In this document: in pieces, positions 58,408 to 60,314 of the stretch | Position numbering within the stretch: the stretch's first letter is position 1 | Layout of the letters: each line of letters opens with the position of its first letter | Source: Escherichia coli | GTDB lineage: Bacteria > Pseudomonadota > Gammaproteobacteria > Enterobacterales > Enterobacteriaceae | Assembly: GCF_003334785.1 (NCBI RefSeq) | Contig: NZ_QOWV01000018.1 | DNA: 64,000 bases | Direction: 5' to 3' (one strand) | Notes under the pieces: generated by a model | What the model saw: the letters and a program-made list of their open reading frames with translations, nothing else | The model's database searches: none | What the model was told of the DNA's origin: nothing | Made by a program: the position numbers and the translations under genes

Positions 58408-58671
58408 TCAGGCGCGGATTTGTTGTGATGTGGTTGTGCTCTGGCAGATGGCAACGTGTGCGACGTCCACCAGTTTATTTAACTGACTAAACAGTAAGTC
58501 GACCGACCGTGGGCTGGCAACGGTCAATTCGATATTTATATTTTGTGCATCGCTGGCGGCGGCCATATTCATTGAGCAGACGTGGAAACCACGATGACGC
58601 ACCACGCGTAAAACACGTTCTAAGGTTTCTGGATTGAAGCGAGCCGATACATTGACCTGATGTTGCATCAT
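58408..58671 (-). CDS. ilvM: acetolactate synthase II small subunit
   Basis: 87 aa ORF; start overlaps the ilvG stop by 4 nt. Confidence 0.95.
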
Positions 58672-60314
58672 GATAATTTCTCCAACATTTCTGAATTACT
58701 GGCGCCAGGCGGCACCAGCGGCCAGACGTTCTCAAGTTCGTCGATTGAGACATGAAGCAGGTATGGCCCATCACTGTTCAGCATGGTGTCGAGTGCCGCT
58801 TCAACCTGGTCTTTCCGGGTGATGTGTTGGCCATGGATGCCGAAGGCGCTGGCTAACATGAGGAAATCGGGGTTATCAGTAAGGGTGGTTTCGCTGTATC
58901 GTTCCTGAAAAAACAGTTGCTGCCATTGTCGAACCATCCCTAACCGTTGGTTATCGAGTAAGACGATTTTCAACGGTAACTGCTTGCGTTTTACGGTGCC
59001 CAGCTCTTGCACATTCATCATGAAAGAGCCGTCACCGGAGATACAGACAACGGTATCGTTCGGTCGCGCGACTTGTGCGCCAACCGCCGCCGGTAAACCA
59101 AAACCCATGGTACCTAAACCGCTGGAGGTGATGAAATTTTCCGGGCGAGTGTGGGCGATGTGCTGCGCAGCCCACATCTGGTGCTGCCCCACATCTGTGG
59201 TCACGACGCAATCCGCAGGTTTACGATCCGACAGTTGTTTTAACAACAACGGCGCGTAGATAGCGTCACCGGGATGGTCGTAACGCCAGGAATGTTCATC
59301 ACGCAGCTGCGCGCAGTGTTGCTGCCAGTCATTGATATTTAACGGCTGCTGTAATGCTGGTAACAGAGCATTTAAATCACCTTGTAATGCCACATGTGCC
59401 TGACGCAGCTTGTTCATTTCTGCCGGGTCGATATCCATATGGATAACACTGGCGTGTGGCGCGAAGGTGTTCAGTTTGCCGGTCACCCGGTCATCAAAAC
59501 GTGCGCCCACGGCGATCAGCAGGTCACACTCCTGCACCGCGAAGTTTGCCGCTTTGGTGCCGTGCATCCCCAGCATGCCCAGATAGTACGGATAATCTGC
59601 TTCTACTGCGCCCAGCCCTTTCAGCGTACAGGTGGCAGGCATTTTTGTGGCAGCGAGAAATTCACGCAAAGCCGGAACTGCCTGCGCCATACCCACGCCA
59701 CCGCCAACGTACAGCATCGGTTTTTGCGCTTTTGCCAGCATCTGGCGCGCTTGCTCAACTTCGGCATGTGGGAAAGTCACTTCGTTTTCAACGGTGGTGA
59801 ACCACGGTTCCAGGTCACCGCTGGCTAACTGGATATCTTTTGGGATATCGACCAGAACCGGACCAGGACGACCTGAGCAGGCAACGTCGAATGCTTCAGC
59901 CATGATGCGCGGCAACTCTTCCAGCGACTGCACCAGAAAGCTGTGCTTGGTACAGGCTAACGACAATCCCAGGACATCCACTTCCTGAAATGCGTCAGTG
60001 CCGATAAACGGTGCGGACACTTGACCGGTGATGGCAACAACAGGGATGGAATCTAACAGTGCGTCCGCAAGCCCGGTTATCAGGTTGGTTGCGCCCGGAC
60101 CAGACGTGGCGATACATACGCCAGTTTTGCCGGTAGCACGAGCATAACCGATAGCCGCCATTGCCGCACCCTGCTCATGTCGGCATAGCAAGTGCTCCAC
60201 GCCGCCGTCATACAATGCATCGTAAACCGGCATAATTGCGCCACCCGGATAACCGAAAACGGTGTTCACACCCTGTGCCCGCAACGCATGTACCACCCAC
60301 TGTGCGCCATTCAT
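58668..60314 (-). CDS. ilvG: acetolactate synthase II large subunit, intact reading frame
   Basis: Uninterrupted 548 aa ORF with thiamine-diphosphate enzyme features (GDGSFMMN); in K-12 MG1655 this gene is split by a frameshift. Confidence 0.95.

Follow-up and report, generated by a model that had tools for sequence, protein, structure and literature searches.

The question raised by the ilv locus of this stretch of Escherichia coli DNA, 64 kb long and referred to below as the window, was whether its ilvG gene, which encodes the catalytic subunit of AHAS II, is intact and what its state says about the strain from which the DNA came. Lesions in ilvG and rph-1 are common to EMG2, MG1655 and W3110 but are absent from WG1 (PMC9997739), and both are also absent from NCM3722 (PMC4541272).

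Results and discussion

The ilvG gene and its product

Listing of the open reading frames over positions 57500-64000, as well as direct translation, gave one uninterrupted frame of 548 codons followed by a terminal stop at positions 58668..60314 of the minus strand. An earlier note on this DNA had described a single intact ilvG of 548 aa at this place; both the coordinates and the length were correct, and re-translation gave no internal stop. The gene was assigned as ilvG, encoding the catalytic subunit of AHAS II, on the basis of the reading frame, NCBIfam model NF006524 and Pfam. Against the NF006524 equivalog ('acetolactate synthase 2 catalytic subunit'), the protein scored 1073.9 bits, the cut-off being 738, and residues 1-547 of 548 were aligned to positions 1-547 of the 548 positions of the model; IlvG is thus a full-length member of this family. 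The three Pfam domains of ThDP enzymes (N, M and C) were found at residues 1-115 (PF02776), 186-321 (PF00205) and 374-522 (PF02775), all with E < 1e-40.

A search of the PDB returned no chain with the sequence of IlvG itself. The nearest solved relative was the large subunit of E. coli AHAS I (6lpi; 543 bits, E = 6e-162, residues 2-544). This protein and the plant and yeast AHAS (1ybh and 1n0h) share the three-domain ThDP architecture with IlvG but are other isozymes or orthologues.

Comparison with the frameshifted allele

When the reverse complement of the window was aligned with the MG1655 genome (NC_000913.3), the sole difference found in ilvG was the presence of two extra bases, AT, in the window. 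According to this alignment and to a comparison of the translations, the pair, which reads AT on the coding strand, belongs to codon 326 and is located at positions 59337..59338 of the minus strand. In MG1655, it is missing after position 3951535, which shifts the frame and brings in TGA at codon 328. The MG1655 gene therefore reads QQPLNQ and then stops, whereas the frame of the window runs on to residue 548, and the 222 residues past the AT site in the window are those that MG1655 encodes in the shifted frame. The ilvG pseudogene of MG1655, W3110 and EMG2 (b4488; formerly ilvG_1/ilvG_2) showed no mismatches to the ilvG of the window, only one gap of two bases, but its product in MG1655 has 327 aa compared with 548 aa for the product of the window. 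The K-12 frameshift allele, in which the 2-bp deletion gives ...TTAAATCAATGA with a stop at codon 328, is not present; the window has TTAAATATCAATGAC, in frame. The alignment thereby confirmed that the allele is distinct from the frameshifted one of MG1655 and W3110, as had been proposed.

The occurrence of both junctions was studied in 5426 complete E. coli genomes. A 60-mer covering the K-12 junction, which the window does not carry, was matched exactly in 340 of these genomes. Among the matches listed, the carriers were laboratory or laboratory-derived strains in 60 of 60 cases, nearly all of them recognisably K-12, and included MG1655, DH5alpha, C600, DH1, J53 and HMS174. The 62-mer covering the junction of the window was matched exactly in 1416 of the 5426 genomes, and most of the others were one or two substitutions away from it. 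Therefore, an intact ilvG is the norm of the species. It is the normal state of the gene in E. coli, found also in the oldest K-12 stocks, and it represents ordinary, already known biology. The ilvG of the window is the un-mutated ancestral allele of the K-12 type. The 2-bp deletion of MG1655, W3110 and EMG2 arose in a single branch of the K-12 pedigree, and the window never had it.

Organization of the operon head

The ilvM gene, encoding the AHAS II small subunit of 87 aa, was found at positions 58408..58671 of the minus strand, directly downstream of ilvG and overlapping its stop by 4 bases. Its product scored 133.9 bits against NF008362 (cut-off 68), and its DNA is the same as that of MG1655. 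The ilvE, ilvD and ilvA genes downstream are also identical to those of MG1655, and ilvG is thus accompanied by the gene for its cognate small subunit within ilvLXGMEDA. Just upstream of ilvG lies ilvX (60317..60367, minus strand), which encodes 16 aa; it was recognized by translation and from the annotations of MG1655 and the other genomes, which also place ilvX at this site.

The leader peptide gene ilvL occupies positions 60454..60552 of the minus strand and encodes 32 aa, with a high content of Ile, Val and Leu codons (ORF MTALLRVISLVVISVVVIIIPPCGAALGRGKA); its match to NF007744 scored 81.9 bits (cut-off 59). Between ilvL and ilvX, RNA folding indicated an attenuator terminator consisting of a G+C-rich hairpin and a U-run (about 60398..60433, minus strand). 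The predicted fold of positions 60385-60500 of this strand had an energy of -39.9 kcal/mol (z = -3.19), and the MG1655 allele forms the same terminator stem. The whole leader or 5' UTR (60334..60626, minus strand) was matched by Rfam family RF02744 with 152.9 bits, at a gathering score of 88, over model positions 1-300 of 300. In a simple promoter and terminator scan, the attenuator terminator was missed on the minus strand, and only the mirror-image hit on the plus strand was reported; the call was therefore based on RNA folding and Rfam instead. Thus, a rho-independent terminator lies between the coding sequence of a leader peptide rich in regulatory codons and the first structural gene, which is the arrangement of a transcription attenuator as predicted from sequence. 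The leader and attenuator that the earlier note had placed upstream of ilvG are present by the evidence of NF007744, the hairpin with its U-run and RF02744.

It should be mentioned that RF02744 bears the name 'Soft rot Enterobacteriaceae Rev 39 5'UTR', yet its full-length match is to the ilvL leader and attenuator of E. coli. The family thus seems to represent the ilvG leader.

Alignment to MG1655 revealed a rare SNP at position 60439 (minus strand), where the coding strand has A instead of the C of MG1655. The site is located in the unpaired spacer between ilvL and ilvX, 5 bases upstream of the terminator stem. The SNP is common to the window and the genomes JKHS016 and OZ121069.1 and does not occur in K-12; a 61-mer containing it was matched exactly in 5 of the 5426 genomes (JKHS016, LR-64-2, AST198, OZ121069.1 and E423). 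According to the predicted folds, the terminator stem is left unchanged, and only a 4-bp extension of its base, which pairs with the distal U-run, is lost: one C-G pair is removed from this extension, and the fold energy is -39.9 kcal/mol in the window compared with -41.6 kcal/mol without the SNP. It is very doubtful that the C-to-A change measurably alters read-through of the ilvGMEDA attenuator and, hence, the levels of the branched-chain enzymes in this small clade.

Lineage of the source strain

The window corresponds to about 3.947-4.011 Mb of MG1655, a region with no classical K-12 marker inside (rfb-50/wbbL, rph-1, prophages, lambda, F). Over the whole 64 kb, it was 99.959% identical to MG1655, and the differences amounted to 11 SNPs and 3 indels (+2 in ilvG, -1 in yifB and +12 in hemX). 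Comparison with the K-12 strains WG1 and NCM3722 over about 50 kb gave the same 11 SNPs and the same hemX and yifB differences; apart from the AT pair, both strains agree with MG1655 at every site in this region that differs from the window. For the 27 kb between positions 37000 and 64000, identity to the K-12 genomes was 99.97-99.98%, while the corresponding values were 99.05% for B REL606 and 99.07% for ATCC 8739 (Crooks).

An alignment to other lineages (B, W and C) had been suggested as a way of placing the strain. Both REL606 and ATCC 8739 have an intact ilvG of 548 aa in the same operon context. However, the gene of REL606 (WP_001012606.1) differs from that of the window by 21 nt and 3 aa (Q332L, S342A and H494P), and the gene of ATCC 8739 (WP_001012620.1) differs by 34 nt and 5 aa. 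With these differences and an identity of about 99.05% over the 27 kb, the B and Crooks lineages were ruled out. The haplotype of the window at this locus is K-12-like and belongs to neither of them.

The earlier note had also taken the intact ilvG as an indication of a non-K-12 background. This argument did not hold. The ilvG DNA of the window is identical at 1647 of 1647 positions to that of WG1, NCM3722, OZ121069.1 and JKHS016 (annotated as WP_001012607.1), and the K-12 strains WG1 and NCM3722 share with the window the same IlvG protein, the same ilvL, ilvX and ilvM and the same operon layout. The frameshift in ilvG is a marker of the branch comprising EMG2, MG1655 and W3110 and not of all of K-12. 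Because only one branch is marked, an intact ilvG alone cannot be used to call a sequence non-K-12, and the common shortcut that equates the two is corrected here. The differences from WG1 and NCM3722 are found outside the gene: the window has the 60439 SNP, a private 1-bp deletion in yifB and 10 further SNPs across the 64 kb.

The yifB deletion, which had been put forward as a second pointer to lineage, was studied separately. In the window, this gene for a ComM-like AAA ATPase consists of two open reading frames on the plus strand (60905..62215 and 62236..62424). Relative to every genome compared, a plus-strand C is missing between positions 62214 and 62215, at a site that is not within a homopolymer. 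The sequence ...EIRQFCKLE... is thereby turned into ...EIRQF and a stop; the product ends after residue 436 of 506, and the remaining 62 residues are encoded in the other frame at 62236..62424. A 60-mer covering the deletion junction had no exact match in the 5426 complete E. coli genomes. The deletion is either a private mutation or an error of sequencing or assembly, and the truncation could be a real loss of function. Being private, with 0 of 5426 genomes carrying its junction, it marks no lineage and was rejected as a lineage marker.

Among the complete RefSeq genomes, no exact match to the window was found. The closest was JKHS016, from hospital wastewater in Japan, with 6 SNPs and the yifB gap over the whole window. 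OZ121069.1, from urine in Cambodia, differed by 5 SNPs and 2 indels over about 50 kb. Of the 11 SNPs relative to MG1655, 10 were also present in JKHS016 and 9 in OZ121069.1. At four sites (49592, 39981, 32282 and 21328), the base common to MG1655, WG1 and NCM3722 was absent from the window, JKHS016, OZ121069.1 and REL606, and ATCC 8739 agreed with the window at both of these sites that could be scored. Since JKHS016 shares 10 of the 11 SNPs and four sites are specific to K-12, the differences are inherited natural polymorphisms and not laboratory mutations. Since the three K-12 strains alone differ at these four sites, the window probably falls immediately outside the clade of K-12; at the sites distinct to K-12, MG1655, WG1 and NCM3722 agree mutually and differ from the window.

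Origins within K-12 were also considered. The source might belong to the branch of WG1 and NCM3722, in which the frameshift was never acquired. The published absence of the lesion from both strains (PMC9997739, PMC4541272) agrees with such an origin, as do their ilvG, identical to that of the window over all 1647 positions, and their identity of 99.98% over the 27 kb. However, at 11 of 11 SNP sites, at the 12-bp hemX indel and in yifB, these two strains go with MG1655 against the window, and the presence of 10 of the 11 window alleles in the natural genome JKHS016 shows that they did not arise as laboratory mutations. K-12 of the WG1/NCM3722 type was ruled out by the SNPs, the hemX indel and yifB, and this origin is considered highly improbable. 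If the ilv region of a K-12 laboratory strain had been exchanged for that of a natural ilvG+ donor by P1 transduction, conjugation or engineering, donor SNPs would be confined to a patch of at least about 39 kb, bordered by sequence identical to K-12. P1 packages roughly 90 kb of DNA. The 11 SNPs all fall within positions 21328-60439, that is, within about 39 kb, which is below this size; positions 1-21327 are the same as in MG1655, and so are positions 60440-64000 except for the yifB deletion. Nevertheless, the flanks of the natural relatives resemble K-12 to the same degree; there, JKHS016 differs from the window by only two SNPs (13099 and 13639) and OZ121069.1 also by two (17189 and 18085), so no hybrid is needed to explain this pattern. 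In addition, the window is free of any selection-marker scar or foreign DNA, and a hybrid strain appears very unlikely.

The ilvG allele could, in principle, also have arisen in a frameshifted K-12 strain by reversion to IlvG+ (valine resistance), either spontaneously or under selection. It is known that IlvG+ revertants appear readily under selection: experimentally evolved MG1655 lines regain the ilvG frame via 982delT or 983delG, after which 1 mg/ml valine no longer prevents their growth (PMC8605374). However, these known revertants have lost a single base of the premature TGA, and their local sequence is non-native (PMC8605374). The window has no compensating indel near this site; its local sequence is exactly the natural TTAAATATCAATGAC, in a 62-mer identical in 1416 genomes. 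Reversion would also leave the 11 other SNPs unexplained, and an exact re-insertion of AT together with 11 coincident SNPs to natural alleles is implausible. The 'ilvG-restored' background, which the earlier note had left as an alternative, was therefore rejected. Since the local sequence is exactly that of the natural wild type, both a revertant and an engineered repair of ilvG were ruled out, and the probability of a revertant origin is considered negligible.

Judging from the 11 SNPs within 64 kb, the source is probably not K-12. The proposal of a non-K-12 background was thus probably right in its conclusion, to which the 11 SNPs and the hemX indel point, but the ilvG and yifB arguments given for it fail. 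The DNA most likely comes from a natural isolate that is a close relative of K-12 at the ilv locus, and its relationship to K-12 over the whole genome is one that we infer. It is very probable that the window carries the ordinary, un-mutated head of ilvLXGMEDA of natural E. coli, with a haplotype nearly identical to that of K-12. That the window does not come from an MG1655-type laboratory stock matters for bookkeeping only.

Other features of the window

An in-frame hexamer repeat (GGTGCA on the plus strand of MG1655), whose copy number varies between genomes, was found in hemX at about 22921..22947. The repeat is 12 bp longer in the window than in MG1655, WG1 and NCM3722, and in OZ121069.1 it exceeds that of the window by 6 bp. 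According to the annotations, hemX has a length of 1182 nt in K-12, 1194 in JKHS016, 1200 in OZ121069.1 and 1206 in REL606.

At position 38368, at the 3' end of wecC and just before rffG, the window has A, and G was found in 7 of the 7 genomes compared (the three K-12 strains, JKHS016, OZ121069.1, REL606 and ATCC 8739). This SNP is private to the source strain.

The yifN gene, a remnant of a PemK/MazF-family toxin gene (about 50412..50860, plus strand), carries the annotation of a frameshifted pseudogene in all the genomes inspected, namely MG1655, NCM3722, WG1, OZ121069.1, JKHS016, REL606 and ATCC 8739. Because it is a pseudogene in all of them, yifN is an old common pseudogene, unlike the ilvG lesion, which is specific to one K-12 branch.

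Two tRNA genes lie at the edge of the window on the minus strand (63844..63916 and 63928..64000), the second being cut by the window end. They correspond to trpT and aspT of MG1655, at the distal end of rrnC.

Predicted function of AHAS II and its regulation

Restoration of the ilvG frame in MG1655 leads to growth at 1 mg/ml valine, AHAS II being the valine-insensitive isozyme (PMC8605374). B strains have an intact ilvG and are reported to be valine resistant, the resistance being mediated by ilvG (PMC3446290). Because the ilvG of the window is identical to the common intact allele, and in view of this literature, AHAS II of the source strain is expected to be insensitive to valine. IlvG would be a full catalytic subunit of 548 aa of the ThDP/FAD type, and together with the adjacent IlvM, it is predicted to form an active AHAS isozyme, AHAS II, that is free of feedback inhibition by valine. 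The strain should thus be valine resistant, as the earlier note had reasonably predicted, and with such an AHAS, an excess of valine in minimal medium should not prevent its growth. Attenuation is likewise predicted to work, and expression of the operon should be set by translation of the Ile/Val/Leu-rich ilvL and by the downstream terminator.

The K-12 frameshift is described as polar on ilvEDA by Parekh and Hatfield (1997), as cited in PMC8605374. The ilvGMEDA genes of the window should be free of the polarity attributed to the frameshift, and the strain should hold all three AHAS isozymes.
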